From sequence record NC_052656.1: 64,000 bases of DNA. One strand, 5' to 3'. The translations under genes were made by a program, and so were the position numbers. The notes under the pieces were generated by a model. The model ran no database searches and was not told the origin of the DNA. It worked only from the letters and a program-made list of their open reading frames with translations. This DNA comes from Escherichia phage anhysbys. Positions 8,834-40,138 of the stretch are shown here, in pieces. Numbering within the stretch: position 1 is the stretch's first letter; each line of letters begins with the position of its first letter.

Positions 8834-9064
8834 GTGTTAAATAAAATCGAAGAAGGTTGTATGGCATTTTTGGTAGATAACCCGTTTCCCTTTATGGTTA
8901 AGGTCCATGTAGGAGAGTATTTAGGTTATGACGAATGGGATTGTAGTATCAATAGTGAAATGCACCACTACCAACCAACAATACTTAAGACGGATCAAAT
9001 GGCGCGTATTACAGTAGAGGATGAATTGATCATTGAGTTATACGAGAGAGCACTACACAAGTAA
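8834..9064 (+). CDS. hypothetical protein
   Basis: 76-aa ORF, GTG start after aggagg. Confidence 0.45.
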   Translation: MLNKIEEGCMAFLVDNPFPFMVKVHVGEYLGYDEWDCSINSEMHHYQPTILKTDQMARITVEDELIIELYERALHK

Positions 9065-9105
9065 GCTAGAACCCACCTAAATCGAACAGAGACGCTCTAA
9101 AATAG

Positions 9106-9135
9106 AAAAGGCACCCACTTGGGTGCCTTTGTTTT
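9106..9135. terminator. bidirectional intrinsic terminator at the convergence of plus and minus blocks
   Basis: AGGCACCC-ACTT-GGGTGCCT hairpin flanked by A-run upstream and T-run downstream. Confidence 0.65.
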
Positions 9136-9406
9136 ATTCTTCGTTAGATTGCGTCTCAGACGCGTTAAATTCGGTTTCAGTACAACTTGCTAAGTAACTT
9201 ATATTTTGCATCACTACAACTACAGGTGTTTGAAGTTTATCTTCTAGCCCCGCAGCCACTTGAGCCAAGGCATTATCAATATTTGATTTCCTAACGCCTG
9301 TTCCATGTCCTGTTGCCAAGTAAAGATTACCTTCCCCTTTTTGTGTAGCATTGGCAAAGTAGTAAACGTAATGTGCAAGGTAGTAATCACGGATTTCTTC
9401 AGTCAT
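9134..9406 (-). CDS. hypothetical protein
   Basis: 90-aa ORF. Confidence 0.45.
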   Translation of the reverse strand: MTEEIRDYYLAHYVYYFANATQKGEGNLYLATGHGTGVRKSNIDNALAQVAAGLEDKLQTPVVVVMQNISYLASCTETEFNASETQSNEE

Positions 9407-9449
9407 TTTATTCTCCTAATAAGAAAGGGGCCGAAGCCCCTTGAGTGGT

Positions 9450-10265
9450 TTATTTGTTTAAGTGGTCTTCGACCATTTTAATGAAACCTTCATTGCTGAA
9501 GGCTGTTGCAGCTTTTTCTCGGTAAACAAAAACTCCACGATCTTCATAGAGAAGTGTTTCTTCGTAATTAACTCCAGGGTTAACTACAACCATTTTTGTA
9601 CCCATACTAAGTGCAGGAAATAATTCCCAATTAAAATTGATAATTTGGTTTGAACATCCTACTACTACAACCAAATCTTGCATGGTCAAAGTATCGAACA
9701 AGTGAGCCATATCTGCATACAAAGGTGCAGCCTCACCAAAAAATACAACATTAGGCTTCACCCAGTTATAATCATCTATGTTTATACTATTGTAACCAAT
9801 ATCTACCAGTGTTTTGTAATCTCCAGGATGCATACGGTAAACTACTTCAGGAAGATAGCCGTGTACGTGAATAACAGAATCTCTGTCTACACCTGCTCGC
9901 TCTAGTAGATCATCAACGTTTGTTGTCAAGTTTACTATTTGGTTAGGATATTCCTTAAACCACTTTGCTATTTGAATATGTGCAGCATTAGGTTGTACAT
10001 CTTTAAGCTCAACACGTCTTTTGTTATAAAATTCGTGTGTTTTGGCATACAAATCCATACCGTTCTCGTCTACACCACCGACCACTGGAAGATCTGGAGA
10101 TGTTCTAACACGATAACCTGCTTGGAAAGCTCCAATATCGCAGACCTCTTCTAAATCATATTCTTCCCATAAAGCACGACCACTATCTGTGTCTGTTCTA
10201 AATGTTCGAATCCCACTGTCTGCACTTAAACCTGCACCGCTTACAAAAATCACTCGTCTTGGCAT
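9450..10265 (-). CDS. SIR2-family (sirtuin-like) NAD-binding protein
   Basis: GAGLSADSGIRTFR, TTNVDDLLERAG, VIHVHG, NVVFFGE and VVVVGCS match sirtuin core motifs; no Zn-ribbon cysteines. Confidence 0.7.
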   Translation of the reverse strand: MPRRVIFVSGAGLSADSGIRTFRTDTDSGRALWEEYDLEEVCDIGAFQAGYRVRTSPDLPVVGGVDENGMDLYAKTHEFYNKRRVELKDVQPNAAHIQIAKWFKEYPNQIVNLTTNVDDLLERAGVDRDSVIHVHGYLPEVVYRMHPGDYKTLVDIGYNSINIDDYNWVKPNVVFFGEAAPLYADMAHLFDTLTMQDLVVVVGCSNQIINFNWELFPALSMGTKMVVVNPGVNYEETLLYEDRGVFVYREKAATAFSNEGFIKMVEDHLNK

Positions 10266-10735
10266 TCTTCCTCCTCAAATGGATCATAAGAATTGTACTC
10301 GTAAGTATCATCTTCTGAAAATTCTACTTCGAAATAAATATCAAACTCTGCAAACAGACGTAGGATGTTAGACATGCTGTAATAATTATCGTAGGCAGAT
10401 TCAGCTTCATAGTAAACATAAAGCAAATGGTTAGCCTTATCATCTTCCAAATATTTCCCGTCTGCATACGCATAGTCTGCATATGCTTTACCTGCATCTT
10501 CCACAAGAGAACGATCAAGCAGAGTAGGAAATGGTTTCTCTTTTTCTTTTAGTTTGCTCACTAACCAATGTGCAATATCATTCCATTCTGCATCCATACC
10601 ACTAAAGCAACTTGCTTCTTCTCCAAAAGAAGCTTCTCCTAAATCGCCACTAATACGAATAACATTAGATGAATTATAGCCACACGTTTCACAATCAGAG
10701 TAACTATTATGCACATTGACATTTACTTGAAACAT
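10250..10735 (-). CDS. hypothetical acidic protein
   Basis: 161-aa ORF rich in D/E/Y. Confidence 0.45.
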   Translation of the reverse strand: MFQVNVNVHNSYSDCETCGYNSSNVIRISGDLGEASFGEEASCFSGMDAEWNDIAHWLVSKLKEKEKPFPTLLDRSLVEDAGKAYADYAYADGKYLEDDKANHLLYVYYEAESAYDNYYSMSNILRLFAEFDIYFEVEFSEDDTYEYNSYDPFEEEECQDE

Positions 10736-10793
10736 ATTCCCTCCTATAAAAGAAAAGCCCCCTGAAACAGGAGGCTTTGTTCAGATGCTGGCA

Positions 10794-11447
10794 CTATACC
10801 AGACTTTGTAGGTATTTGTCAAGGGCTTCTTGATCGCCTTGACAAACATAGCAACGGAAGTCTTGAGCCGAAGGTTGTTTATTTTCATCCCAGTCCCAAT
10901 AAACATTACCCTTATAACGTGAACCAGGAAACTCAAAAGAGGCTGTATGTGTAATGTATCCTGGGCCACCAGTGAAATCACAGAATGAGAATTGGGGGTA
11001 TGCCGCCTTTACTGCCTCAATAAACCAAGCTTTACGATCTAAAGCTTCATTGATGCTATACGCATGTCTCTCCATTTCTTCCCACGTTTTCCAGACACTT
11101 CTCTCATCAGGAGAAAAGACAAGCCATTCTGGAAGGTATAGAGTGTCATAGTAATCATCATATTCGATCTCGGAGGCGCACGAAGCTGACTCCTCCAGTT
11201 TTGAGTAATCAAAAGCAGAATATACCCACCAACCATCTTCCAGTAACGCTTTGATAGGGACGAAGCCTTTATCAGCATATTGATCGAATTGTTTGACACG
11301 GTGGCTTGTGCAGTCTTCAAACTCACATTCTAAACGATATGCACCTTTTCGACGAGCCTCAAGACCGTGTGTACTGAAAATAACAACACTTCCTTCACCA
11401 TCATTACGATCTACTTGATAAGCAACCACTGGTTTTGAATTTGACAT
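10794..11447 (-). CDS. hypothetical protein
   Basis: 217-aa ORF. Confidence 0.5.
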   Translation of the reverse strand: MSNSKPVVAYQVDRNDGEGSVVIFSTHGLEARRKGAYRLECEFEDCTSHRVKQFDQYADKGFVPIKALLEDGWWVYSAFDYSKLEESASCASEIEYDDYYDTLYLPEWLVFSPDERSVWKTWEEMERHAYSINEALDRKAWFIEAVKAAYPQFSFCDFTGGPGYITHTASFEFPGSRYKGNVYWDWDENKQPSAQDFRCYVCQGDQEALDKYLQSLV

Positions 11448-12130
11448 TATTTCTCCTTATCTAGAAGATTGTTAGACAAAAACACTGCACGAGCAAAACC
11501 ACGTGCGGTTAGTGATCTAAGTTGTTTTGTTTTTGCACTAGCTCCACCTAAGCTTTTCCAACCCCAGAAGCAGCCTATATGATCTACTGGTTTCTTAACT
11601 GGTTGAACAAAACCATTGCCGTGCCAAATACAAGTTTTCTTTGTATACCCATCACGGGTAGGCATTTTAGGATGAAAGCTTCCTTCCTCTTCAAACAAAT
11701 ACCCACCATACTCATAAGGATCAAAGTAAAAATCGGGTTTACGCCATAAGGTTGAAAGTTTACCTACTGGGTTCTCAATCATCCAAGGAACATTATATTT
11801 GTTACCCAAAGCTTCCACTACACGAATATTAGCTAAAGCTTCATCCAATTCCTCTGTGCTGCGTTCGTGTTTGCTACCACTACCTGCTAACATAGTGCAA
11901 GGTGGAAATCCAAAAATAATATCGGGTTTAGGTATCCCATGATCTTCAGGGTTGAATGTAGAATCTATCCAGGCATTCACATAGGTTATGTTTGGGTGCT
12001 CCATCCTAACCTCGTATTTACCGTGATCCCCTTCATCAGCGTTTACACAAAAACACTTGTGACCTGCTTCGGCATAACGTAACACCATGATCCCAGATCC
12101 GTCAAACATAGACAAAACTGTTTTACTCAT
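11447..12130 (-). CDS. putative methyltransferase-like protein (C5-MTase-like FDGSG and GFPPC motifs)
   Basis: Start moved to ATG 12130 after GGAGGGG; SMFDGSG and FGFPPC resemble motifs I and IV of cytosine-C5 MTases; protein is short for a full MTase. Confidence 0.35.
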   Translation of the reverse strand: MSKTVLSMFDGSGIMVLRYAEAGHKCFCVNADEGDHGKYEVRMEHPNITYVNAWIDSTFNPEDHGIPKPDIIFGFPPCTMLAGSGSKHERSTEELDEALANIRVVEALGNKYNVPWMIENPVGKLSTLWRKPDFYFDPYEYGGYLFEEEGSFHPKMPTRDGYTKKTCIWHGNGFVQPVKKPVDHIGCFWGWKSLGGASAKTKQLRSLTARGFARAVFLSNNLLDKEK

Positions 12131-12536
12131 TACCCCTCCATTCAAGACAAGCCATAACTTTACGCCAATCACTTTCTGTAAGAAAAATCTCGTTTGCTTT
12201 CTTCCACAAATCTAAATCGTGAAGGGTTGGAATACGATATGTTAGTTCACAGAATCTATGCTCTTCTTCTGTAATATAACCAAAATGCAGAGCCACATCG
12301 TGAAACCAACACCAACCATGCATCTCTCGAACAACATGGTCATGTTGAGACATTATTTTATGCCGTAAACCTAACCAACAAGGAACAGATACTTTAGTAG
12401 TCTTTAATCTGTGATCAACAGTATTAGAGTATTCAATAATAGCTGTCAGTTTCAATCGTGCTTTTTCTAAATCCTCATGCGTCACTTTGAAATAACTTTC
12501 TGAAAGATATCCACACATATTAATAACCTCCTTCAA
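12123..12536 (-). CDS. hypothetical protein
   Basis: 137-aa ORF. Confidence 0.45.
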   Translation of the reverse strand: MKEVINMCGYLSESYFKVTHEDLEKARLKLTAIIEYSNTVDHRLKTTKVSVPCWLGLRHKIMSQHDHVVREMHGWCWFHDVALHFGYITEEEHRFCELTYRIPTLHDLDLWKKANEIFLTESDWRKVMACLEWRGNE

Positions 12537-13461
12537 AAGGCTTTACTACATGTTGATTAGCTTTAAAACGTTCAACATAGTCGTTTTCGCCCATGTTTTC
12601 ATATAGCTTAATAACAACATAAAAGTTTTCCCAAGCATATTCCCTAAACCAACCACTAGTGATGGATGTGCAGACTTTAGATAAAGCCATTATAAAACTT
12701 TGCTTAGGGGTTGGACCTCCGATCTCTCCACCGAAAGGAATTTGTGAACGTTCCAAAGCCAAAACACACGCTTCTTCATAAACACCTAACAGGCGCACAT
12801 GTTTTGGTTGAGCAAAAAACTTTTCTTTGCTGGTCATAACTTCACTTCCATCTTTCATATAAGATTTATATGCTGGGGCATCCATTACCGCGATTGCTTC
12901 ATGGATAGAATCATGATCATAAACATACGGAACCTCATCACCTTTAAAAAAGTCTTTACTTTTTACGTTTAAGTTCGGATGAGAGTAAGTGTATGTTTCT
13001 TTCTCACGCAACTCATAAATACTCTTAAGATTTTCTGGGATCTTTGCGCCAAGTGACCGCATGAAATGAATATCTTTCATAGTTTTAAAGAAGTGAGGAC
13101 TATCCTTTTTAAAACGATGACTCATTTTAAGAAGGTAGAGCACATCTAAAGGAGCAACAACATGTCCAGCATAAGTTCGACGAACATCATCAGAATCTTC
13201 ACAATAACTAATCAAAGCTTCTGTGCTATCTCCTTGAGAAGCAATATCGTATTCCAAATGTGCACCAGCTATCATTTTGACATGGCCTTTGTTCCCTTTA
13301 CGTTCTACAAGTTCAACAAACTCATCTTGAGAGAACATTTTTGATAATTCTTCCCACTCTTGTTCTGTACACAGGTAATCTAAATCTACACAAGGGCGAT
13401 ACAAGTCTTTTCCCATGTCCATAGCATGAATTTGTAATGCACGGCTACCAATTAACACCAT
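12520..13461 (-). CDS. hypothetical protein (313 aa)
   Basis: Long ORF; N-terminal GS...DLD pattern is only weakly nucleotidyltransferase-like. Confidence 0.5.
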   Translation of the reverse strand: MVLIGSRALQIHAMDMGKDLYRPCVDLDYLCTEQEWEELSKMFSQDEFVELVERKGNKGHVKMIAGAHLEYDIASQGDSTEALISYCEDSDDVRRTYAGHVVAPLDVLYLLKMSHRFKKDSPHFFKTMKDIHFMRSLGAKIPENLKSIYELREKETYTYSHPNLNVKSKDFFKGDEVPYVYDHDSIHEAIAVMDAPAYKSYMKDGSEVMTSKEKFFAQPKHVRLLGVYEEACVLALERSQIPFGGEIGGPTPKQSFIMALSKVCTSITSGWFREYAWENFYVVIKLYENMGENDYVERFKANQHVVKPFEGGY

Positions 13462-13519
13462 AATATTTCTCCTCTATTGGTTGATAGGTTAAGTTTATCA
13501 AGCTTCCAGATTCCTGTCA

Positions 13520-13545
13520 ATAAAAAACCCGCCGAAGCGGGTTAT
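13520..13545 (-). terminator. intrinsic terminator (UUCG tetraloop) on minus strand
   Basis: Minus-strand CCCGC-UUCG-GCGGG followed by UUUUUU. Confidence 0.7.
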
Positions 13546-13551
13546 TATTTA

Positions 13552-13824
13552 CTAACACATTGAGGAAGAAGAGATCCAAACACCTCTTGTGGTTAAACCA
13601 TTTTCATCCAACTCTACACCATAATCTTCACAAATGAAATCAATATAGTGATCTGCGGCTGGCGTTCCTGTAGGGTAATAAGTTTCTCCGTTACCGTAGT
13701 CACCTATCCAAGCTTGTTCCTGAAACTGTTCACAAAGTTCTTCAATTTCCTTACGAAACTTTCTTTGTGCTTGTTCCATCTCTTTAACTTTCTTTTTTAT
13801 CAGCAGTTCGCCTTCAGACTCCAC
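13552..13824 (-). CDS. hypothetical acidic protein, paralog family 2 (C-terminal GVWISSSSMC)
   Basis: 90-aa ORF; GTG start after AAGGAGAG overlapping upstream stop. Confidence 0.5.
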   Translation of the reverse strand: MESEGELLIKKKVKEMEQAQRKFRKEIEELCEQFQEQAWIGDYGNGETYYPTGTPAADHYIDFICEDYGVELDENGLTTRGVWISSSSMC

Positions 13825-13833
13825 AATCTCTCC

Positions 13834-14052
13834 TTAACAGCTACTACTGTGCCAAACGCCTTGAGAATTAACGACGAAACCATCATCACCTTCACCATAA
13901 CAAGAAGAGGATTGCCAATCTTCAAAACAGATTGCGTCATTTTCTAAACTAAGACCAAAACCAGCATCTTCAGCTTCTTTTGTAAGTTCGTCCACTAAAG
14001 CCATAATAGCTTGGGCTTTTTCAGTTAATTCTTCAACATTACGATCACTCAT
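13834..14052 (-). CDS. hypothetical acidic protein, paralog family 2 (EDWQSSSC and C-terminal GVWHSSSC)
   Basis: Start moved to ATG 14052 (aggaga RBS, ATGA overlap with upstream stop). Confidence 0.5.
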   Translation of the reverse strand: MSDRNVEELTEKAQAIMALVDELTKEAEDAGFGLSLENDAICFEDWQSSSCYGEGDDGFVVNSQGVWHSSSC

Positions 14053-14321
14053 TAGTATTTCTCCTCTGGTTGGAAAACTGAACGACAGGCCCACATAGAA
14101 GCTTCTTTCAACTTAGTCTTTGCTATTGAAATTTGGTCAAGGCGGGTGGATATATTGGTAGACTCTTCCAAATCTTCACAATCATCCAGTTCAGCCCACA
14201 ATTCAGACATTAGAGCATCAAAGATTAATCCTAATCGAACTTCAGCATCTTTAATAGCATTCACTTTACCAATTTTGTCATCGGTATGCGGTTTATAACC
14301 TTTGATATCTTCGATTCCCAC
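14052..14321 (-). CDS. hypothetical protein
   Basis: Start moved to GTG 14321 preceded by AGGAGG. Confidence 0.4.
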   Translation of the reverse strand: MGIEDIKGYKPHTDDKIGKVNAIKDAEVRLGLIFDALMSELWAELDDCEDLEESTNISTRLDQISIAKTKLKEASMWACRSVFQPEEKY

Positions 14322-14332
14322 TTTACCTCCTA

Positions 14333-14530
14333 TTAACAACTTAAAGAAGATGGATGCCAATTTGTTCCAGTATTCTCATTTTCATCTTCTGGATCATAAT
14401 AACCTCCCATCCCATATTCAGGGGAGAAACTGAAACCTTCACCAGTCTCGTCTGCTAACTGTTCTGCTTCCGCTAAAGCCTCATAAGCTGCTTTTACGGC
14501 TTCTTCTACTGTTTTAAACTTGGTCGTCAT
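14333..14530 (-). CDS. hypothetical acidic protein, paralog family 2 (C-terminal NWHPSSLSC)
   Basis: 65-aa ORF. Confidence 0.5.
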   Translation of the reverse strand: MTTKFKTVEEAVKAAYEALAEAEQLADETGEGFSFSPEYGMGGYYDPEDENENTGTNWHPSSLSC

Positions 14531-14804
14531 AAAATTTCTCCTCTCCTAAAGACATGTTGACATGAAATGCACGATATGTAAATTCGTTGTCCGTTGTGTT
14601 TGAATAAAACTCAAATTGAACAACACCGTCTTGAGAAGACAGATACATGCCAATTTGAACTGTTCCTTCTGGTACCAGGTAAGCATACTCTGGACGTAGT
14701 GTTACATTGTAAAAATAAAGTTCCCCAACACCCATTTCATCCCAAGCTTCCCAAGCGGTAACGAAGTTACTTTCAAAACTTGTTACTGATCCGAACTCTG
14801 CCAT
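14514..14804 (-). CDS. hypothetical protein
   Basis: 96-aa ORF. Confidence 0.45.
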   Translation of the reverse strand: MAEFGSVTSFESNFVTAWEAWDEMGVGELYFYNVTLRPEYAYLVPEGTVQIGMYLSSQDGVVQFEFYSNTTDNEFTYRAFHVNMSLGEEKFYDDQV

Positions 14805-15295
14805 AAAACCTCCTCAATCTTGTAGTTTGACTCCATCTCCAACACATTTCCACGAACGTCTCTCCGAAGAAAGGCATAAGCTTTATTAGGTATTGTAGAC
14901 TCATATTTAACCATATCTGGCACAGCAAAAGATACTACTACTCCTGCTGGGCTTCTGTCAAGAGCCTTATTAATATTTCTAAGGATATCGTTAGCCAAAA
15001 TTTCTGCCAATTCTCCAAGAACGGTTTCGGTTATATCTTTATATCCCATTAAGTATTTGTTGATATCTTTCATCTCTGTATTGTTCAGAGTATAATCCAA
15101 AGGATAGAAATTCAAAGCGGAGTCACTTTTATGTGTCCACATGAAATGCACCCGATCCGAGCAGAATCGTAACCCTCTTTGAAGAATATCTTCTACAACA
15201 GGCAGAATTTCTTTTGTCACATCATTAACCATGTTGTAATCTAAGATTTCTGCCAAGTTTGTTCTTTGTTCACCACGTTTACGTTTAGGAATCAC
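14783..15295 (-). CDS. hypothetical protein
   Basis: 170-aa ORF. Confidence 0.5.
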   Translation of the reverse strand: MIPKRKRGEQRTNLAEILDYNMVNDVTKEILPVVEDILQRGLRFCSDRVHFMWTHKSDSALNFYPLDYTLNNTEMKDINKYLMGYKDITETVLGELAEILANDILRNINKALDRSPAGVVVSFAVPDMVKYESTIPNKAYAFLRRDVRGNVLEMESNYKIEEVLWQSSDQ

Positions 15296-15866
15296 TTGTT
15301 ATTGCCCTCATTACCAAAGGTCGTAGAAAATCGTAAATCTCTTGTTTTGTTTTCCCACGAATGTTTAAACAAGGAACATTATTGGCTTTAGCTATCTTCC
15401 AAGCCGTAGCTGTTCCACCTTTTGCATCTCCATGTTTATCAGTATTAGCACAAGCCAACAAGAAACATGATGGAGCAGGATTCTCCAAATCTCTACCTAA
15501 CACTTGATGCACATTACGTTGGTGCAATTTTCTAGCACCCTGCTTAAGCTTTTCATAGGCTGGGTGAACATCTTTGATCCATTGCACAGAGATAGCATAG
15601 TTCATTGTATCTGGTTTTGCAAGAACAATAACATCCCCTGGAATCTGATTACCTTTGAAATTTTCCCAAGGAACATAAATCTCCTTGTTAGTAGGATTTT
15701 CAGACTCTTGGACACCTGTTTCAAAAGCAGAATCACTACCCTCTGCCTTCCCAGACCTTAATTTAAACCCAAGGTTTGAAAGCCATTTCCCTATGCCTAC
15801 CATCAAAGCCCACTCTTCTTCGGATATGTCTCTACTTCCAACTCCCGTATAGAACAGTTCTGCCAT
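15285..15866 (-). CDS. DprA/Smf-like Rossmann-fold protein (SLOG superfamily)
   Basis: GVGSRDIS ... GFKLRSGKAEGSDSAFETG resembles the DprA/SLOG nucleotide-binding motif; start moved to ATG 15866 after GAGGTG. Confidence 0.4.
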   Translation of the reverse strand: MAELFYTGVGSRDISEEEWALMVGIGKWLSNLGFKLRSGKAEGSDSAFETGVQESENPTNKEIYVPWENFKGNQIPGDVIVLAKPDTMNYAISVQWIKDVHPAYEKLKQGARKLHQRNVHQVLGRDLENPAPSCFLLACANTDKHGDAKGGTATAWKIAKANNVPCLNIRGKTKQEIYDFLRPLVMRAITSDS

Positions 15867-15873
15867 AATCACC

Positions 15874-16182
15874 TCAACAAGTAATTTCAAAAGGTGTATA
15901 GGGTTCCGTATTTCTCATGATCCAAGGACTGCTAGGATTGCTCGGATCATAAGGGCCAAAAGGTTTTATGGTAGGTTGTGTTTCTTTCTTCTGAATCTCT
16001 TCAAAAATACGACGAAGTTCAGAATATTCTTGATCCACCATAAGATTCGGTGCATCTGATTCTACAGCTTGCAGGTTATCTTCCTTAAGAACAATCTCAC
16101 GAACAAGATTAACATCTTCTGTTTCTAAGATAACTTCTTTACGGATATTACCTACACTTTGAATAATTGTAATCTTATACAT
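15874..16182 (-). CDS. hypothetical protein
   Basis: 102-aa ORF. Confidence 0.45.
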   Translation of the reverse strand: MYKITIIQSVGNIRKEVILETEDVNLVREIVLKEDNLQAVESDAPNLMVDQEYSELRRIFEEIQKKETQPTIKPFGPYDPSNPSSPWIMRNTEPYTPFEITC

Positions 16183-16925
16183 TAATCCTCCTCAAGAGTT
16201 GAATAAAATTGAAGACCACCGTCCATATCGAAATAAGCAAATGTTAAGTTATTATTGAACACAGATCCAGTATCCATATAAACACGATTCGCATTGATAA
16301 TAGGTGTTTTTACATAAGAGTGTCCATGAAACACATAATCCACACCCATCACAACAGGAAGTTTCATTCCCTCTTTAGCACAATCCACCATATCTCTGTC
16401 CCACATAAGTGCTTCAGCAAAACGGTTTTCCTGTGTTTTTGTCATCTTCGAAGTGTATTCTGGAATATCTGTTACAGGGAGATATTCCAAAGAAGACGGA
16501 TACCCACCATGAATAAACGCAAGTTTCATGCCTCTGTAGTTAACAATGAGAACAACAGGTAAATCTTCTGTCATCATTGCTAAGGCTGTAGCTCCTTCTT
16601 CACCACATTCTTCAAAGACCGTATATCCTCCATTTTGATACCAACACTCGTAGTAGCTACGATCTCCTTCCAGCATACCTTTAATCATCATGTCTTCATG
16701 ATTGCCACGAATAGCGTAGCGATTGTGTTTACGAGTAAATTCTAAAACACAACGAAAATTTTGCTTTCCACGGTCAGTAAGATCTCCTAGAGATACAACC
16801 ACATCTGTATCTCGGATACCTAACTTTGCCTTTCCTTTTTCATACAAATTATAACAACCGTGTAGATCTCCAATTATAAAAAGATCTTGATCGCTTTTAA
16901 CAGTAATTTCTCTGTGTATGATCAC
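16182..16925 (-). CDS. Ser/Thr protein phosphatase (PPP family, lambda-PPase-like)
   Basis: GDLHG, GDLTDRG and GNHE metallophosphatase motifs. Confidence 0.85.
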   Translation of the reverse strand: MIIHREITVKSDQDLFIIGDLHGCYNLYEKGKAKLGIRDTDVVVSLGDLTDRGKQNFRCVLEFTRKHNRYAIRGNHEDMMIKGMLEGDRSYYECWYQNGGYTVFEECGEEGATALAMMTEDLPVVLIVNYRGMKLAFIHGGYPSSLEYLPVTDIPEYTSKMTKTQENRFAEALMWDRDMVDCAKEGMKLPVVMGVDYVFHGHSYVKTPIINANRVYMDTGSVFNNNLTFAYFDMDGGLQFYSTLEED

Positions 16926-17251
16926 TTATCCTCCTCAAAATCTAAGAAAATAAAAATATTCACCTTTCCTTCAATCTCTTGTTCTAAAACAAGATCGGCA
17001 AATTCTGCATAAGCTTTCTCTTCAACTTTTTCAATATGTTCTGCGGCATCTTTAAAAGGCGTATCCCCATCCACCTTTACTAATAAGAAAAGAGATCGCA
17101 TTTCGACGTTTTTACTGTTACGAGGAAGGAAATCTACAGCTTCAACAATTCTCCAACCCAAATAGCCAGGGGTTTTATGAATCTCCCCTAAATACTTTTC
17201 TAAGATTTTACGACCCTCGTCGATAAGGGCTTGTTCTGTAGTAATTTCCAT
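16922..17251 (-). CDS. hypothetical protein
   Basis: 109-aa ORF. Confidence 0.45.
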   Translation of the reverse strand: MEITTEQALIDEGRKILEKYLGEIHKTPGYLGWRIVEAVDFLPRNSKNVEMRSLFLLVKVDGDTPFKDAAEHIEKVEEKAYAEFADLVLEQEIEGKVNIFIFLDFEEDK

Positions 17252-17261
17252 TCCTTCCTCC

Positions 17262-17852
17262 TCAAATTATTAACGAAACCGCATGACTAAATCTTGGTTC
17301 AGATATAACCTCTGCTACAGTCACATATGTATCGTGCAGCCAAAAAGATTCTACTCTACAAACACAAATACCGTTGATAATGAAATCTACACAGGCTTTA
17401 TTATTTTCGCACACTTGTTGACTATAAACAACCCCTAAAGAGTCATAAAGTGATCTCACTGTTGCTACCATTTCATCTGTTTCGTCTTCCTGTGAAACAA
17501 AGAAAACGAATACAGACAAGTTATTAGCGAAAGTATTGCTATTCTCTACTTCAACCGACTTACAAGGTAAAAAGGAGTAATATTTACCGTTAGGTATCAA
17601 TTTCGCCTCAACCTGGTTAAGTATGCTTTGAGATGGTTTTGTTACATAAAAAAGATTTTCTGTTGGGTTTTCAACATTGCTCCTTACTATGCAACGAGTG
17701 GGGTTCGAAGGATCAAAAACATGATCGAAATCGACACACACAGGTAAGTTAACAACTTTAAACTTTTTGCTAAGAATGCTTACTGCTGTAAAAATCAAAC
17801 CAGCATTTATTTTGCCAGTGAAAGTTGAACGCATAACTACTCCTCGGATCAT
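17262..17852 (-). CDS. hypothetical protein
   Basis: 196-aa ORF. Confidence 0.5.
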   Translation of the reverse strand: MIRGVVMRSTFTGKINAGLIFTAVSILSKKFKVVNLPVCVDFDHVFDPSNPTRCIVRSNVENPTENLFYVTKPSQSILNQVEAKLIPNGKYYSFLPCKSVEVENSNTFANNLSVFVFFVSQEDETDEMVATVRSLYDSLGVVYSQQVCENNKACVDFIINGICVCRVESFWLHDTYVTVAEVISEPRFSHAVSLII

Positions 17853-34324: not shown

Positions 34325-35203
34325 TTATTTAAGGATTGTTGCTTTGGTTAAATCTTCCATCAGACCTCGAATCTCATTGAAGCACAGAAGGACTGAAGCT
34401 TCAATACTACCTTCTTCGTCTGCAAAATATTTCGGAAAACGTAGTTTAGAAAGTTTAAACTCTTTATCCACTACAAAATCTACAACACCATCATATTCAA
34501 GACCGATTGCAACCACATCTTTACCATCTTCTTTTAGTTCGACAGCTTTAGACTCGTATAGGGATTCTTTACTCCAAACAACAACGCCCTCGCTATCCTC
34601 CATTTTGATATAATTTCCGAGAGTAATACGATCTGCTTCGTGATTCTCCAACAATTCGCCAAAACCTTTTACAATAGCTTCTTCGTGCACACTAAAACCT
34701 ACCGAAGGGAAAGTCCCCAGAACGGAACGGAGGAAAGAAGTAATCTCTTCTGCAACCTTTTTACTTCCATTAAGAACATAAAGAAGATTCGTAGTTTTAT
34801 CCAAGACAACATAGTTAAAGAAATCTTCAGGTTCTGTTTCAGGCAATAGTGCAAATTCAATATCTTCCTTCATTGCTTTGACTACTTCTTTATCAACATA
34901 AAACTCTTTACCTTCGCTCCCCATGTCCTGACGCATTTCTTCTAGACGTTCATTCAGAATACGTTTAACTTTCTTTTTATCTACTTTCTTCACAGATTGA
35001 CCTACATTAAGTAGTTCAAGATCTGAAAACTCTTTTACAAATTTAGAGTCATCTTCGAAACGAACAAGACCGATAGTGTGTGACTGGGAGCCTTCTGCCG
35101 TTACAAATTCCAGAGGAATATCTGTAATGCTGTTAAGGGATGCTACAGAAGCATTGTCACCAACAACCATAGGCAGAGCGGATTTAAAAGATTTTACAAA
35201 CAT
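34325..35203 (-). CDS. putative RdgC-like recombination-associated protein
   Basis: 292 aa; overall pattern resembles RdgC from memory only. Confidence 0.35.
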   Translation of the reverse strand: MFVKSFKSALPMVVGDNASVASLNSITDIPLEFVTAEGSQSHTIGLVRFEDDSKFVKEFSDLELLNVGQSVKKVDKKKVKRILNERLEEMRQDMGSEGKEFYVDKEVVKAMKEDIEFALLPETEPEDFFNYVVLDKTTNLLYVLNGSKKVAEEITSFLRSVLGTFPSVGFSVHEEAIVKGFGELLENHEADRITLGNYIKMEDSEGVVVWSKESLYESKAVELKEDGKDVVAIGLEYDGVVDFVVDKEFKLSKLRFPKYFADEEGSIEASVLLCFNEIRGLMEDLTKATILK

Positions 35204-35259: not shown

Positions 35260-35985
35260 TTACTTGTTAATAATACCTGCAATATTAGGTTTGACAAAGG
35301 TCGATGGTTTCATGATCTTACCTTTATCATCAAAGAATACATACACTTTCTGTTTTTCATTATAAACAGCATGAACACCAGTGTATGCCCCTTCTGGACG
35401 ATTGGCATTTCGTTCTTCAATTGCAGCGCATTCTTGTGCAATTGCTGAATCGATATCTGAAGTTTTCCAGGTTTTCAGCAACTGTTGTTTAGTTGGATAC
35501 TTGGAATCATTACTTTTCAATACCTCTTTAATAACTTTCTTTTCTGGATATTTTGAACGGATTAGAGTGTCACGAGACATACGCATAATACCAGCAGCCA
35601 TTAGTGCCATTTGAACTGGCTCTGTAAATGTTTGTTCCAAAGCATCGAAATCGGTATACACAGTTGGAGTAAAAACATCGCCTACAGCATAGTCCAAGAA
35701 ATTCATCGTATGTTCTTCACCAAAGAACATGTAAGTCAGATAACTGGATACTACAAAAATATCCGCTGCTGCATCCAAGAGTTCTACATGATCGTTTACT
35801 TTCGCGGCTGTTTCATACTCTTTAAGCTCTTCACGAACGAACCCGATTTGGGACATAAATAGCTCTTGAGTGAATTCAGGTTGTTCACCACCTCGTGCTT
35901 TGGCATTCCAATCAATCACGTGCTTTGCTGCATTTTTGAAAAATTCAGTATCGAATTTAATATCTTTAAAAAAATTCTCGATCAT
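35260..35985 (-). CDS. putative MazG-like nucleotide pyrophosphohydrolase
   Basis: REELKEYETAAKVNDHVELLDAAADIFVV resembles the MazG EExxE...D helix motif. Confidence 0.4.
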   Translation of the reverse strand: MIENFFKDIKFDTEFFKNAAKHVIDWNAKARGGEQPEFTQELFMSQIGFVREELKEYETAAKVNDHVELLDAAADIFVVSSYLTYMFFGEEHTMNFLDYAVGDVFTPTVYTDFDALEQTFTEPVQMALMAAGIMRMSRDTLIRSKYPEKKVIKEVLKSNDSKYPTKQQLLKTWKTSDIDSAIAQECAAIEERNANRPEGAYTGVHAVYNEKQKVYVFFDDKGKIMKPSTFVKPNIAGIINK

Positions 35986-35994
35986 TATAACTCC

Positions 35995-36177
35995 TTATTT
36001 AAAATAGCTTTCTAGAAAGTTGCTAATATTTACTACAGTCTCACCCATGTAAATTCCTGCGAAACCGAAAACAAGCATACGTGGAATATTGAAATACCAT
36101 TTATCCGCCGGAAAAGATGCCAGAATTACAATAGCAATTGCTATCAACATCATAAGAATTGTTGCTAAAATTATCAT
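35995..36177 (-). CDS. small membrane protein
   Basis: Start moved to ATG 36177 (ATGA overlap with upstream stop); two hydrophobic helices. Confidence 0.4.
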   Translation of the reverse strand: MIILATILMMLIAIAIVILASFPADKWYFNIPRMLVFGFAGIYMGETVVNISNFLESYFK

Positions 36178-36368
36178 AAAAATGCCTCCAGGTATTTTGC
36201 ACAATGGTAAGCTAAGAAACAAGAAACTACCGCATACCCAACTCCAGACATACATGAATCAATCGCAATACATACGGTTCTTTTCTTTGAATTCTTAGGA
36301 AAGCTTTCCGAAGCATTCATACAATAAAAAGAAAGCACACTGAAAACGATTAAAATGGCTAAGAACAT
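36174..36368 (-). CDS. small membrane protein
   Basis: 64-aa ORF with hydrophobic segments. Confidence 0.4.
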   Translation of the reverse strand: MFLAILIVFSVLSFYCMNASESFPKNSKKRTVCIAIDSCMSGVGYAVVSCFLAYHCAKYLEAFL

Positions 36369-36377
36369 TTTTCCTCC

Positions 36378-37505
36378 TTATTCTGCTGGTTCCCAAGTAC
36401 CTGGGATCATTTCTCGAATACGAACACCAACAGGTTTTGTTGGAATACCTTCATCTGAAAATTCTTCATACTCTATTTCAACGAACTGATTAATCAAGGT
36501 AGAAGCATTCTCTGCTTTACGATAATTGATAGTCTCATGAGCATCTTTACGCATTAAGAATTCGACTACTTTACCATTTTCCATCTCACCTGTCAACACT
36601 CCATCACCATTTTTATCACTTTTTGAATTTGTTACTTTAACTTCAAGGGTGTGGCGAGGCTTACGTTTAATAACGTCATAAGAACGTTTATCAAATTCGT
36701 AAACTCCGTGAGCATTACGATATACTACACCTTCAGCTTTCTCAAGTAAAGCTTTTTCATAGAAAGCATCAAACTGTTCTTGGTTTTCAATATACTCTGT
36801 ATGAACTACGCAAATAAGCTCGTCAAGACCATAATCTTCAACTACTGCCTTAAGAGCAGTAAGAACATCAACACGTTTTTCAAACGGTAGATCTGGAACT
36901 GGAATATCATATACGTAATAATTCAGCAAAGGTGTATTTGCATTATGCTTCTTCCAGGCACTGTTAATTTGTTGCAGACTAAGGACACCTAACCCAGCAA
37001 ACACTTCACCATCAAGAGGATGACCAACAACTTCACTAATAAAGTTTGGAATACCTTTCCAATGAGGTGGCAGGTTATACACTTCCCCAGCTTTTGATAA
37101 ACACTCCCCTTTCATGTTAATCATAGAACGTAACCCGTTCAGTTTGTATTGTGCATAACCAGGGAACACAACCCTTTCAGGATAATCTTTATAATCCTGG
37201 CATTTCATTGGTGTAGAAGGAACATGGTTTTCAGCTTCTTCTTTTGTTTTATAATAGCCATTCTTTAACTGTTTTGTCCATTTGGCAAAAGCTTCAAGTT
37301 CAGCTTGTTCTTCTGGTGTTGTTTCATTGGAACGACCGATGTTTTTTGCTTCTGCTGTATAAGATTTTTCTGTGATTTTTCCACCTACCCTTCCATGAGC
37401 TACAGTAACAACTGCACCATCTGTATACACTGTCCACTGTTTAAGTTTTCCTTTTGAATCTTTACCATACAGCGTTTGATTTGTTTGTTGCATTAGTCCT
37501 CCCAT
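36378..37505 (-). CDS. ATP-dependent DNA ligase
   Basis: YKLNGLR (motif I KxNGxR), DGEVF (III), EGVVYR (IV), DVIKRK (V). Confidence 0.7.
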   Translation of the reverse strand: MGGLMQQTNQTLYGKDSKGKLKQWTVYTDGAVVTVAHGRVGGKITEKSYTAEAKNIGRSNETTPEEQAELEAFAKWTKQLKNGYYKTKEEAENHVPSTPMKCQDYKDYPERVVFPGYAQYKLNGLRSMINMKGECLSKAGEVYNLPPHWKGIPNFISEVVGHPLDGEVFAGLGVLSLQQINSAWKKHNANTPLLNYYVYDIPVPDLPFEKRVDVLTALKAVVEDYGLDELICVVHTEYIENQEQFDAFYEKALLEKAEGVVYRNAHGVYEFDKRSYDVIKRKPRHTLEVKVTNSKSDKNGDGVLTGEMENGKVVEFLMRKDAHETINYRKAENASTLINQFVEIEYEEFSDEGIPTKPVGVRIREMIPGTWEPAE

Positions 37506-37714
37506 TTAAAAACTGAAATTTTCAATCTGTTACACACTTCATCCAAATCTGCGTCGAGTAACGTTGTAGATGTTGCCAACATATAATCAATGCTTGTGAA
37601 ACCTTGCCCTTTGGCATAGTCAAGCATATCTTCATACATATCTTCAAGATCACCGTCATCAAAAGTAGCTAGAAAATCCTCGTCCCCGCTACGAACATAA
37701 AATGCAGTACTCAT
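37493..37714 (-). CDS. hypothetical protein
   Basis: 73-aa ORF. Confidence 0.4.
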   Translation of the reverse strand: MSTAFYVRSGDEDFLATFDDGDLEDMYEDMLDYAKGQGFTSIDYMLATSTTLLDADLDEVCNRLKISVFKWED

Positions 37715-37902
37715 TCATCTTCATCCCAAGATTCAAAAACGCAGCAATCATCGGTTTCTATAATACCAACACGTCCGCAGGTATTGCAAGTGATTTTATC
37801 ACCGTAGAATAAATAATTTTTATCACCCTCTGTGTTTACAGTTATGTCATTACTACCACAAGGGCAAGTCAGCCAACCAACAACAACGATATCTTTTTTC
37901 AT
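37711..37902 (-). CDS. hypothetical zinc-ribbon protein
   Basis: CPCG ... CNTCG cysteine pairs. Confidence 0.4.
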   Translation of the reverse strand: MKKDIVVVGWLTCPCGSNDITVNTEGDKNYLFYGDKITCNTCGRVGIIETDDCCVFESWDEDE

Positions 37903-37911
37903 AATCCCTCC

Positions 37912-38238
37912 TTAAGCGTTCAGTTCGTTGTTGAGTTCGTAAATCTCTTCTTGAAGAGCATCAATCTCTTCCTCCAAACGGGAGATCTCTTCTTTTAGAT
38001 ATACCATTTCTGATTCTTTCTCTTCTAATTCATTTTCAAATTTTACTTTATTCGCCTCATTTTCATAATGCAGTTCAGCGTAATCATCACGCATTTGTTC
38101 AATAAGATGAATCAGAGATAAGATATAGTTATCCCCAGTTTCATCTCGCCACTCTTCCCCGTGGCGCAAGATTGTGATTCGTCCCGTGTTTTCATCTAAA
38201 ATTGTCTCATATTTACGATCATCTGTATAAATCTGCAT
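37912..38238 (-). CDS. hypothetical coiled-coil protein
   Basis: 108 aa with heptad-like E/L-rich C-terminus. Confidence 0.45.
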   Translation of the reverse strand: MQIYTDDRKYETILDENTGRITILRHGEEWRDETGDNYILSLIHLIEQMRDDYAELHYENEANKVKFENELEEKESEMVYLKEEISRLEEEIDALQEEIYELNNELNA

Positions 38239-38247
38239 TATTACTCC

Positions 38248-38652
38248 TTATTGAAGTTTAAGTGAACCACGAAGACGTTTCTCTTGCTGATCACGAATAT
38301 ATTGTGGAACCTCGTGAATTGAATCATTACCGTGCCTATTTTCAACAACTAAAGAGATAACTTGATAACCAAACTCTTCAGCAAGAGTTAGATAAGGTTT
38401 AAGTTCTTTCTCTGTGGTTGAAGTGTTAGAAACAATAATCTTGTTAAGATTAGATGCCATAGCATCACGAACAATACTCTGACACCATGCGTGTGCTTTA
38501 CCTACATTTTCTGGCTTCCAATCGTAAACACCACTTTCTGTATAATGATATTGATCTGCCTCACAGATAGGCCAATAACCTTCAGAAATAATTTCTGCTA
38601 CCGTAGATTTACCAGCACCTGAAACGCCACGTAAAATGATAAGTTGTTTCAT
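38248..38652 (-). CDS. P-loop kinase (polynucleotide-kinase-like)
   Basis: Walker A ILRGVSGAGKST at N-terminus; adjacent to RNA ligase and phosphoesterase genes. Confidence 0.55.
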   Translation of the reverse strand: MKQLIILRGVSGAGKSTVAEIISEGYWPICEADQYHYTESGVYDWKPENVGKAHAWCQSIVRDAMASNLNKIIVSNTSTTEKELKPYLTLAEEFGYQVISLVVENRHGNDSIHEVPQYIRDQQEKRLRGSLKLQ

Positions 38653-39585
38653 TTATCCTCCAAAGAAGTTTTCGATTTTTTCACGTCGCTCTTGCTGATT
38701 TAAAGCAGCCCATTGAGTCTTCGTAAAATTATTTCGAATCCATTCTAACAAAGCGTAATATTCTTCGTCAACAATTTGTTTGGCATTTTTCGGATTATCC
38801 CAAATCAGATCCCACTTTTTATCTCCACCACGCATAAGAAACTTCTTAGTAAGATAGTGTGGTGATTTAATTTTTAAAAGTAAGTTGAACGGATAGTTTG
38901 TTTCACGAACTACAAACCCTTCGTGTTTACAATGTTTAGACATTTCAACAACATCTGAAAACTTAACCATTGGATGAACTTCAGGACGCTTAAATTTGGT
39001 GACAGAAGCAATTCCATCAAGAGCACCTTCAGGTAACATAAAACTTGTCCCATCAGGATTTTGAATTCTGGCACCAATTAAGTATGCACCTGGTTCTTCT
39101 TCGACAATATGTGGATCAGAAGGATCACAGATTTCAAACAGGAAAGTTGCTTTTGCACTCTCTGCCCATTTGATGAAATGTTCTATGTCATCGCACTCTG
39201 AAACAATATGATTCTTTGCAATACTTGCAAAATCTGATTCAAGGCTTCCTGTTGTCGATACAATAAGTTGACCTTTATATACACCTACAGAGGCCATAAA
39301 ACCATTTACTTTACGAACCACATCTACAAGTTCATCCGCTGGTAGATCTGTGCCATTCTCAAAACGATTAAAAATCTTAGTGAAAGGCCAAATAACAACA
39401 TTGTCATCAGCATCAACAACGATTCCGCGACATTCTAGAAGACGAGAATCAATGCTCCATAAATTATCCCAGAAAACTTTGTTCTTATACTTAAGAACAG
39501 ATAGACCAGAATACTCTCCTTCTTTATATGTTTTCTTATGAACTAAACCTTTTTCAACCAAATCGTCGCAATTAAATTTAGCCAC
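38653..39585 (-). CDS. RNA ligase (nucleotidyltransferase superfamily)
   Basis: RKVNGFMA (motif I KxNG), HEGFVVRE (motif IV), LLLKIK (motif V). Confidence 0.6.
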   Translation of the reverse strand: MAKFNCDDLVEKGLVHKKTYKEGEYSGLSVLKYKNKVFWDNLWSIDSRLLECRGIVVDADDNVVIWPFTKIFNRFENGTDLPADELVDVVRKVNGFMASVGVYKGQLIVSTTGSLESDFASIAKNHIVSECDDIEHFIKWAESAKATFLFEICDPSDPHIVEEEPGAYLIGARIQNPDGTSFMLPEGALDGIASVTKFKRPEVHPMVKFSDVVEMSKHCKHEGFVVRETNYPFNLLLKIKSPHYLTKKFLMRGGDKKWDLIWDNPKNAKQIVDEEYYALLEWIRNNFTKTQWAALNQQERREKIENFFGG

Positions 39586-39586
39586 A

Positions 39587-40138
39587 TTATTCTCCTTTGA
39601 TTATTTTGTGATGGTCTACAGTCACGATATCTCGTTTACTCATCATAGAAATTATCTCATCAAAATGCAAGATTTTTCCGTGTGCATCCCAACCCACATC
39701 TAACATTTTACCATAAGCTTCATCAGGGAAAGATCCGTGGGAATGCCCGTGTAGCATGATTGATCCACGACCTTGTTTATTCCAGGAGGCCATAGGGTAA
39801 TGGCTTAAGACGAAGAACAGCTTCTGATATTTCACTTCGTCATAATACACCACTTCTCCATACTCTGCAAGCACTTCTCGGTGTTTGCTGTAGTCATGGT
39901 TCCCAACACAGTAGGTGATATCTCCTTGGAGACGGGAAGCAATTTTACGGGTATCTTCTTCAGTTCCGAAACAGAAGTCGCCCAAATGCCACATCTTAAC
40001 ACCAGGAGTAGTAGCACATTTGTTCCATGCTTCGATCAAGGCTTCTGTCATGTGGTCCATATCTTCCCACGGACGATATTCAGGAGCAAACTCTCGAATG
40101 CGTTTATGCATAAAATGCAAATCGCTTGTAATAAACAT
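39587..40138 (-). CDS. calcineurin-like metallophosphoesterase
   Basis: SDLHF (DxH), HLGDF (GD), VGNHDY (GNHD) motifs. Confidence 0.7.
   Translation of the reverse strand: MFITSDLHFMHKRIREFAPEYRPWEDMDHMTEALIEAWNKCATTPGVKMWHLGDFCFGTEEDTRKIASRLQGDITYCVGNHDYSKHREVLAEYGEVVYYDEVKYQKLFFVLSHYPMASWNKQGRGSIMLHGHSHGSFPDEAYGKMLDVGWDAHGKILHFDEIISMMSKRDIVTVDHHKIIKGE

Follow-up and report, generated by a model that had tools for sequence, protein, structure and literature searches.

Do a SIR2-like and a DprA/SLOG-like protein encoded in the same region of a phage genome work together, as the two domains of the bacterial Thoeris effector ThsA do, or are they merely neighbours? The question is raised by Escherichia phage anhysbys (NC_052656.1), of which we analysed a stretch of 64,000 nucleotides, here called the window. 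An original prediction had placed the SIR2-like protein in the open reading frame (ORF) at 9450-10265 and the DprA/SLOG-like protein in the ORF at 15285-15866, and had read the two as a split ThsA, involved in manipulation of nicotinamide adenine dinucleotide (NAD) or of a signal, or in mimicry of a defence system. Both ORFs are real at these coordinates; each has an ATG and a Shine-Dalgarno sequence, and both lie on the minus strand, which the prediction had left unstated. On balance, and with some reserve, we favour the view that the sirtuin and the DprA-like protein are the products of two independent accessory genes of a Phapecoctavirus, that they form neither a functional pair nor a split ThsA, and that each has the role proposed below.

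The DNA was correctly taken to be that of a phage. A megablast search with positions 9000-16500 found the closest genomes in Escherichia phage phAPEC8_ev052 (99.5% identity) and ESCO13 (99.4%), and 62 phage records covered at least 80% of this region. The best matches belong to the genus Phapecoctavirus in the subfamily Stephanstirmvirinae, so that the window can be described as phAPEC8/ESCO13-like. Both genes were already known and annotated, and both are members of large named phage families (PHROG 2162 for the sirtuin and PHROG 768 for the DprA-like protein). In the RefSeq record of ESCO13, the sirtuin ORF is HOR21_gp057, 'Sir2 (NAD-dependent deacetylase)', and the DprA-like ORF is HOR21_gp069, 'DprA-like DNA recombination-mediator protein'. 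They lie in a minus-strand block that extends from about 44 kb down to 9.1 kb and also holds ribonucleotide reductase, ThyX, DNA ligase, PhoH and dTDP-rhamnose genes. Because the two genes share this block with genes of nucleotide metabolism, their predicted location in an early region is plausible. The surroundings are indeed acidic: 12 of the 16 other ORFs of 9134-17852 encode proteins with an isoelectric point (pI) of 4.0-4.9, and the only two non-acidic proteins there are the DprA-like protein (pI 7.7) and a methyltransferase-like protein (pI 7.1).

The sirtuin core that had been recognized in the first protein was confirmed. The protein matched Pfam SIR2 (PF02146) with 79 bits against a cutoff of 24 and PHROG 2162 'Sir2' with E = 8e-104, and among solved relatives the sequence was closest to E. 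coli CobB (1s5p, E = 1e-18), with archaeal Sir2, Sir2Tm and SIRT5 next in line. Its motifs are GAGLS (residues 10-14), FR (22-23), Y80-x-x-R83, TTNVD (114-118) and H135 within HVHG, and in the C-terminal part FFGE (175-178), GCS (203-205) and N229. We compared the window protein with 59 homologues from viral contigs. In all 60 sequences the NAD-binding and catalytic positions G10, A11, G12, F22, R23, Y80, N116, D118 and H135 were identical, as were F176, E178, G203, S205 and N229; R83 was identical in 59 and G177, the glycine of FGE, in 51. The catalytic residues are thus retained. The glutamine of the QNID motif is replaced by threonine throughout the set. The Y80-x-x-R83 segment aligned to FYNARR of CobB, and we take it to be the class III pair by which SIRT5 and CobB recognize acidic acyl groups, binding a carboxylate. 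Given that nothing is missing or varied in its catalytic machinery and that deacylases are its closest relatives, our first choice for this protein is an NAD-dependent reaction on a macromolecular substrate, most simply deacylation.

The family to which the sirtuin belongs is wide. It was found in 974 phage records, including T5, other T5-like, rV5-like and Mydo-like phages and, more distantly, KVP40. The leading host genera were Escherichia (372 records), Salmonella (289) and Klebsiella (131), and T5-like genomes were prominent among the matches listed. Within PHROG 2162, the T5 member (T5.102, 'putative Sir2-like protein', 51.6% identity) and its rV5-like and Mydo-like relatives are clearly of the same kind, with 46-60% identity, the same invariant catalytic set and a common loss of the zinc cysteines. 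In the genus of the window phage the setting of the gene differs, as the sirtuin follows a small acidic protein that contains cysteines and is not beside an RNA ligase/kinase cassette. The proteins are acidic throughout the family, with a median pI of 5.0 and a range of 4.6-5.8.

It had also been claimed that the sirtuin lacks zinc-binding cysteines, and this is so. C42 and C204 are its only cysteines, and there are none in residues 136-172, the segment aligned with the cysteine-rich zinc module of CobB. In 58 of the 60 sequences this segment has no cysteine or one. The pattern CxxC...CxxC is kept in the two most distant homologues (35-38% identity), which are found on jumbo-phage contigs of 279 kb (L140, 8001-8711) and 608 kb (L141, 7986-8708). 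Because these most distant homologues keep the pattern, the zinc site was lost within the phage clade of T5-like, V5-like, Mydo-like and phAPEC8-like sirtuins, in the course of phage evolution. The protein also departs from the CobB/class III sirtuins (1s5p, 6rxj and SIRT5) in the threonine mentioned above, in its acidity and in being encoded by a phage, and some phage members have a variable insert of 30 residues at about 50-73. Its scores fell below the equivalog cutoffs for CobB in NCBIfam (NF040867, NF001755 and others), with 104.8 bits against 243, 84 against 320 and 84 against 318; altogether it reached at most 105 bits, against equivalog and subfamily cutoffs of 221-395. Judged by these scores, the phage sirtuin is not an orthologue of CobB.

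Loss of the zinc site is a feature of NADase-type SIR2 domains as well, and this, together with scores far under the CobB equivalog cutoffs, might suggest that the sirtuin is a NADase that needs no substrate, or a protein ADP-ribosyltransferase, that serves host shut-off or exclusion of competitor phages. We regard this as very improbable. In sequence and in fold the protein is nearest to deacylases and not to NADase SIR2 domains or to SirTM: with an AlphaFold model built from 28 relatives (predicted local distance difference test, pLDDT, 89), the fold search scored the ADP-ribosylating SirTM at 14.2, HerA-SIR2 at 12.1, ThsA at 11.3 and the SIR2 domain of Avs5 at 9.9. No defence-type SIR2 profile of PADLOC matched, and the FGE loop that binds the peptide and the catalytic histidine are both retained. 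A drain of NAD+ would moreover hurt the phage itself, and the annotation of the window includes no NAD-salvage gene.

The second protein was harder to classify. The call of a DprA/SLOG domain had rested on a short motif, and the direct comparison with Pfam DNA_processg_A (PF02481) was indeed poor (E = 0.073, 12.7 bits against a cutoff of 29.6, residues 9-52), while phmmer against the PDB returned nothing meaningful. The call was nevertheless upheld by the match to PHROG 768 'DprA-like' (E = 2e-62) and by the family: when its members were scanned singly, 35 of 51 reached the Pfam DprA profile at E <= 0.01, the best at 2.6e-7, so that the similarity to SLOG/DprA is real. Three of the 51 also reached SLOG cluster 4, and none reached the YpsA family DUF1273 in Pfam. 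The sequence alone does not decide the fold of this protein. Its AlphaFold model (pLDDT 95.5, predicted template modelling score 0.91) shows a predicted SLOG fold in which one glycine-rich loop follows strand 2 and another precedes the penultimate helix. The nearest relatives of this model were DprA, LOG and the Moco carrier protein, and the SLOG domains of TRPM2 and ThsA were matched as well. Among the predicted viral structures of BFVD, the strong matches were phage proteins labelled DprA-like or left unnamed (E = 1e-17 to 1e-10, template modelling score (TM) 0.67-0.82); viral SLOG proteins of the YspA/DUF2493 type were matched at about E = 3e-3 and TM of about 0.4. From the LOG, Moco carrier, YpsA and YspA groups the protein differs in several points: the viral YspA/DUF2493 proteins match it only weakly, it has no DUF1273 match, and the LOG motif PGGxGTxxE is missing, KGGTATAWK standing in its place without the proline and without the glutamate.

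The invariant residues of the family occur in the same order of motifs as in Smf, the DprA of E. coli. GVGSR (residues 8-12) corresponds to VVGSR of Smf, RSGKAEGSD (37-45) to TSGLARGID, LHQRN (114-118) to FPRRN and KGGTATA (149-155) to RSGSLVTA; the phage protein further has the motifs PW (66-67) and HPAY (101-104). In DprA of Helicobacter pylori, a pocket gated by Arg52 holds one base of single-stranded DNA (ssDNA) and its phosphates, which requires Phe140, Arg143 and Asn144 as well (Wang et al. 2014, PMC3950713). The same authors proposed G-S/T/A-R together with F/L/Y-x-x-R-N/D as the signature of DprA domains that bind ssDNA. Both motifs are present in the phage protein, as G10-S11-R12 and L114-H-Q-R117-N118, and R12, R117 and N118 are invariant in the 51 sequences. 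Compared with the Rossmann domain of DprA/Smf (PF02481; 3maj, 4ljk and 3uqz) and with ShosA (8zva), the phage protein is a single domain with an insert at 68-108, is under the Pfam threshold and has R37, W67, H101, H115 and Q121 as further invariant residues.

The genes of the two proteins generally do not keep company. The sirtuin gene and the DprA-like gene are separated by about 5 kb and 11 ORFs. On the coding strand between them there are two strong terminator-like hairpins (13543-13526 and 10778-10754), each with a promoter-like site beside it; the scan gave 14 terminator-like sites, against an expectation of 5.3 +/- 2.3. We compared 80 loci around DprA-like genes and 59 loci around sirtuin genes, all from viral contigs. 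Of the 80, seven had a sirtuin no more than 10 kb from the DprA-like gene, and all seven are the nearest relatives of the window phage. Of the 59, 13 had a DprA-like gene no more than 8 kb from the sirtuin; the distances were 2.7, 3.6, 5.8, 6.5 or 7.1 kb, and the two genes had either the same or opposite orientations. In Mydo-like and related genomes of 145-150 kb that have both genes, 20-24 kb lie between them, as calculated from contig coordinates. Neither gene has the other as a conserved partner in the comparison of operon partners. The counts of host genera of the two families hardly overlap, and most phages that carry one family do not carry the other; the argument for independence is based on these counts and on the fetched loci.

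Here the original prediction parted from the evidence. ThsA of type I Thoeris (7uxs, 7uxt) unites the same two superfamilies, and the window phage has both within one genome region. On the predicted reading, the SIR2 protein and the SLOG protein would together make up a ThsA-like module that manipulates NAD or TIR-derived signals, or that mimics Thoeris or acts as a decoy for it. We find this scarcely credible. In a ThsA module the two domains would be expected in one polypeptide, or at least in one operon, beside the TIR-domain protein ThsB. The phage domains are unfused, non-adjacent, predicted not to be co-transcribed and variable in orientation and linkage across lineages, and the neighbours that were scanned included no TIR domain. 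The PADLOC profiles for ThsA, DSR and SIR2-HerA did not match either protein at E <= 1, and the only PADLOC match of the SLOG protein was ShosA, a DprA homologue, at E = 0.02. For neither protein was the fold closest to the SIR2 or SLOG domain of ThsA, which ranked 15th to 17th in both fold searches. The SLOG protein, in addition, bears the signature motifs of DprA. Because there is no ThsA match in PADLOC and the genes are unlinked, the resemblance to ThsA is at the level of the superfamily only.

As an independent gene, the DprA-like gene is spread widely. The protein collection held 276 homologues, and the family occurred in 1054 phage records, with Pseudomonas (233), Klebsiella (165), Escherichia (126), Aeromonas (95), Vibrio (82) and Acinetobacter (65) as the leading host genera. 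In the window it belongs to a series of ORFs that abut or overlap one another, starting at a NinI-like phosphatase, and such a phosphatase is a neighbour of the DprA-like gene in 13 of the 80 loci. We found no conserved operon partner; the best immediate neighbour was PhoH, in 6 of 47 groups. Macro-domain proteins and NAMPT-like proteins are encoded within 4 kb of DprA-like genes in 6 and 4, respectively, of 47 dereplicated lineages (L018 7789-8340, L070 9044-9562 and L053 7144-8832), which weakly suggests that the gene has an NAD/ADP-ribose context in some phages. Neither type of gene is near the DprA-like gene in the window.

Such neighbours could also be viewed as signs of counter-defence. 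The DprA-like protein might sequester or cleave a nucleotide immune signal, or might replace the antitoxin ShosA and so silence ShosT. SLOG pockets bind nucleotides, as in LOG and in the SLOG domains of ThsA and TRPM2, and the invariant polar residues beyond the DprA set would suit such a function. ShosA offers a precedent, as it neutralizes ShosT without binding it, through binding to ssDNA and RecA (PMC12961424). The gene stands alone in an early-type region and is scattered widely over virulent phages, as a counter-defence gene might be. However, there is no conserved partner, the match to ShosA is limited to the shared N-terminal motif, and the phage protein has neither the SAM domain of ShosA nor its helix alpha14, which serves stability and dimerization. 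The motif with the catalytic glutamate of LOG is missing, and Macro-domain and NAMPT-like neighbours are infrequent and would be expected in accessory regions in any case. A counter-defence role therefore seems to us quite improbable, and we prefer to see the protein as a reduced DprA.

The surroundings of the sirtuin gene raise a more serious alternative. A functional prediction for this clade has been published: Iyer, Burroughs, Anantharaman and Aravind (2022, PMC9503650) predicted that the phage sirtuins remove 2'-phosphates from RNA in a repair pathway. The sirtuin would then be an RNA-repair enzyme similar to KptA/Tpt1, using NAD+ to remove the 2'-phosphate from broken or re-ligated tRNA, together with a kinase, an Rnl1-type ligase and a phosphoesterase of the phage, to reverse damage from anticodon nucleases of the host. 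The window protein is 46-60% identical, over 97-100% of its length, to the V5-like, Mydo-like and T5-like sirtuins, and 46-58% identical to the V5-like, Mydo-like and T5 members that the prediction names or implies. Our clustering of neighbourhoods recovered the association independently: in 6-7 of 22 dereplicated lineages each, an RNA ligase, a P-loop kinase, a metallophosphoesterase, a MazG-like protein and a DNA ligase were encoded no more than 4 kb from the sirtuin. The window, too, contains this cassette (35260-40138), and the invariant Y-x-x-R pair could hold a phosphate.

However, the cassette that adjoins the sirtuin in V5/Mydo-like phages is about 28 kb away from it in the window and belongs to another transcription unit. 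In T5 the gene lies between nrdD and hypothetical genes, and its immediate neighbours are NrdD, PhoH and hypothetical proteins, none of them an RNA-repair gene; over all sirtuin loci, which are mostly T5-like, PhoH and NrdAB are the commonest neighbours. Uniform acidity would be unusual for a family of enzymes that bind RNA. Furthermore, the Pnkp/Rnl1 pathway of the T4 type leaves no 2'-phosphate that would have to be removed. We thus consider removal of RNA 2'-phosphates unlikely, although it deserves more attention than the other alternatives. Taken more broadly, the possibility of a role without precedent for one of the two proteins, centred on NAD or nucleotides, in the conflict of phage and host, be it a Tpt1-like sirtuin that completes tRNA repair or a SLOG protein that acts in counter-defence on an immune nucleotide or as a substitute for ShosA, is to be kept in mind but appears doubtful.

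Fold, motifs, conservation and the absence of linkage are observations; for the substrates and physiological roles of both proteins, we infer the following. The phage encodes an active-looking class III (CobB/SIRT5-like) sirtuin that would act, dependent on NAD, on a macromolecular substrate. In the early to middle phase of infection, it may use NAD+ to remove acyl groups, acetyl or of the succinyl type, from lysines of host or phage proteins. Perhaps it transfers ADP-ribose to a macromolecule instead. The other gene encodes a minimal single-domain protein of the DprA-type SLOG group that would bind ssDNA, or a nucleotide, in the canonical pocket. We suggest such binding because both motifs of the ssDNA pocket are kept and the charge of the protein is near neutral. 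The simplest role for it may be in replication or recombination of the phage, or in modulation of RecA of the host.

Several facts do not sit easily with this proposal of two independent accessory genes, and they should be weighed together. RNA-repair genes adjoin the sirtuin in 4-7 of 22 groups, which was the basis of the 2'-phosphate prediction of Iyer et al. (2022). The sirtuin is so far under all CobB equivalog cutoffs that a CobB-like substrate cannot be assumed. Among the SIR2 structures that we recovered, loss of the zinc site goes along with proteins that are not deacylases (NADases), and to our knowledge this holds more widely. For the DprA-like family, the profile matched PDB sequences weakly (DprA at E = 0.018 and 0.36), and hhalign aligned only 39 residues of the protein with E. 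coli Smf. The protein lacks both the SAM domain and the C-terminal winged helix that are known from canonical DprA, one Rossmann domain spanning all 193 residues, and the extra invariant polar residues H101, H115, Q121 and W67 could mean an enzyme or a small-molecule ligand. In several lineages, two T5-like phages among them, the sirtuin and the DprA-like gene are 3-7 kb apart, and there is room for some weak association between them. Finally, the literature that we searched yielded no biochemical or genetic data on either phage family; the matches were bacterial defence SIR2 proteins, ShosA and genome announcements.

The other features of the region are collected in Table 1. The start of the sirtuin gene overlaps the upstream ORF for a 161-aa protein by 16 nt and the sirtuin gene overlaps no other ORF, an arrangement from which the two are probably co-transcribed and translationally coupled. 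Only the phAPEC8-like lineages (3 of 22 groups) have a homologue of the 161-aa protein immediately upstream of the sirtuin. Further upstream on the minus strand, a 217-aa protein (10794-11447, PHROG 8514) is a neighbour of the sirtuin in 7 of 22 dereplicated lineages, and a 241-aa protein (11447-12172) with motifs like those of C5-methyltransferases (FDGSG, FPPC and ENP) is near it in 4-6 of 22. The latter had no match in Pfam and weak matches in PADLOC and to M.HaeIII; searches of PDB sequences with these two neighbours gave nothing significant beyond the weak M.HaeIII match. The 90-aa ORF downstream of the sirtuin, at 9134-9406 on the minus strand (L001 6135-6407), which is labelled 'Sir2-like protein' in ESCO13, had no likeness to the sirtuin profile (hhalign probability 0.2%), and the label looks like an annotation artefact.

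Between the sirtuin and the DprA-like gene, there are three small and very acidic ORFs on the minus strand (13552-13824, 13834-14094 and 14333-14530) that share the C-terminal motif W-x-S-S-(S)-x-C. They end in GVWISSSSMC, GVWHSSSC and NWHPSSLSC, respectively, and the second also has DWQSSSC internally; by their letters they resemble a family of paralogues in which a cysteine tail is conserved at the C terminus. Upstream of the DprA-like gene, a 196-aa ORF (17262-17852, minus strand) is called 'histidyl tRNA synthetase' in RefSeq relatives, a name that is unsupported, as no profile of Pfam or NCBIfam matched. The phage also has an RdgC homologue, a second gene possibly tied to processes that depend on RecA, as RdgC is a modulator of the RecA pathway. 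Among the database records, those named as Campylobacter phages (B15, A145, A147 and A12a) and as Acinetobacter phage vB_AbaM_ABPW7 share 97-99% identity with the E. coli phages described here or with rV5-like phages; the host labels are probably wrong, or the records are contaminants.

Table 1. Positions of the two genes, their signals and other features in the 64,000-nucleotide window.
Feature	Position	Strand	Remarks
Sirtuin gene	9450-10265	minus	271 aa, pI 4.8
Shine-Dalgarno GAGGAGG of the sirtuin gene	10276-10270	minus	precedes ATG; inside the 3' end of the upstream 161-aa ORF
DprA-type SLOG gene	15285-15866	minus	193 aa, pI 7.7, single Rossmannoid domain
Shine-Dalgarno GAGGTG of the DprA-like gene	15875-15870	minus	precedes ATG
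Bidirectional terminator-like hairpin	9107-9130	both	convergence of the plus-strand block with the minus-strand block
Terminator-like hairpin	9425-9442	minus	directly 3' of the sirtuin stop codon
161-aa protein	10250-10735	minus	pI 4.05, PHROG 9509; conserved Cys at 15, 18, 43 and 158 (C-terminal EEECQDE)
Intergenic control region of the 161-aa/sirtuin pair	10754-10822	minus	consensus matches only
Strong terminator-like hairpin	10778-10754	minus	consensus match only
Promoter-like site TTGACA-18-TATAGT	10822-10793	minus	11/12 consensus positions
Promoter-like site	13520-13492	minus	after hairpin 13543-13526
Terminator-like hairpin	13543-13526	minus	unit boundary between the DprA-like gene and downstream units
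NinI-like calcineurin-type phosphatase	16182-16925	minus	two genes upstream of the DprA-like gene
RdgC homologue	34325-35203	minus	Pfam RdgC E = 7e-22
MazG-like pyrophosphohydrolase	35260-35985	minus	RNA/DNA end-repair cassette
ATP-dependent DNA ligase	36378-37505	minus	RNA/DNA end-repair cassette
AAA_33 kinase	38248-38652	minus	RNA/DNA end-repair cassette
T4 Rnl1-type RNA ligase	38653-39585	minus	RNA/DNA end-repair cassette
Calcineurin-like phosphoesterase	39587-40138	minus	RNA/DNA end-repair cassette

The outcome calls for some caution, in that the occurrence of SIR2 and SLOG proteins in one phage genome should not be taken for Thoeris mimicry unless it is checked at the level of the clade. 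Both families are large, with about 1,000 phage genomes each. The sirtuin of T5, rV5-like and phAPEC8-like phages, which has lost the zinc site but keeps all its catalytic residues, is a tractable case for the role of viral sirtuins, in which deacylation can be set against removal of RNA 2'-phosphates. A DprA domain that has been reduced to the ssDNA pocket could in turn reveal how phages handle RecA of the host, or defences that sense ssDNA, such as ShosTA.

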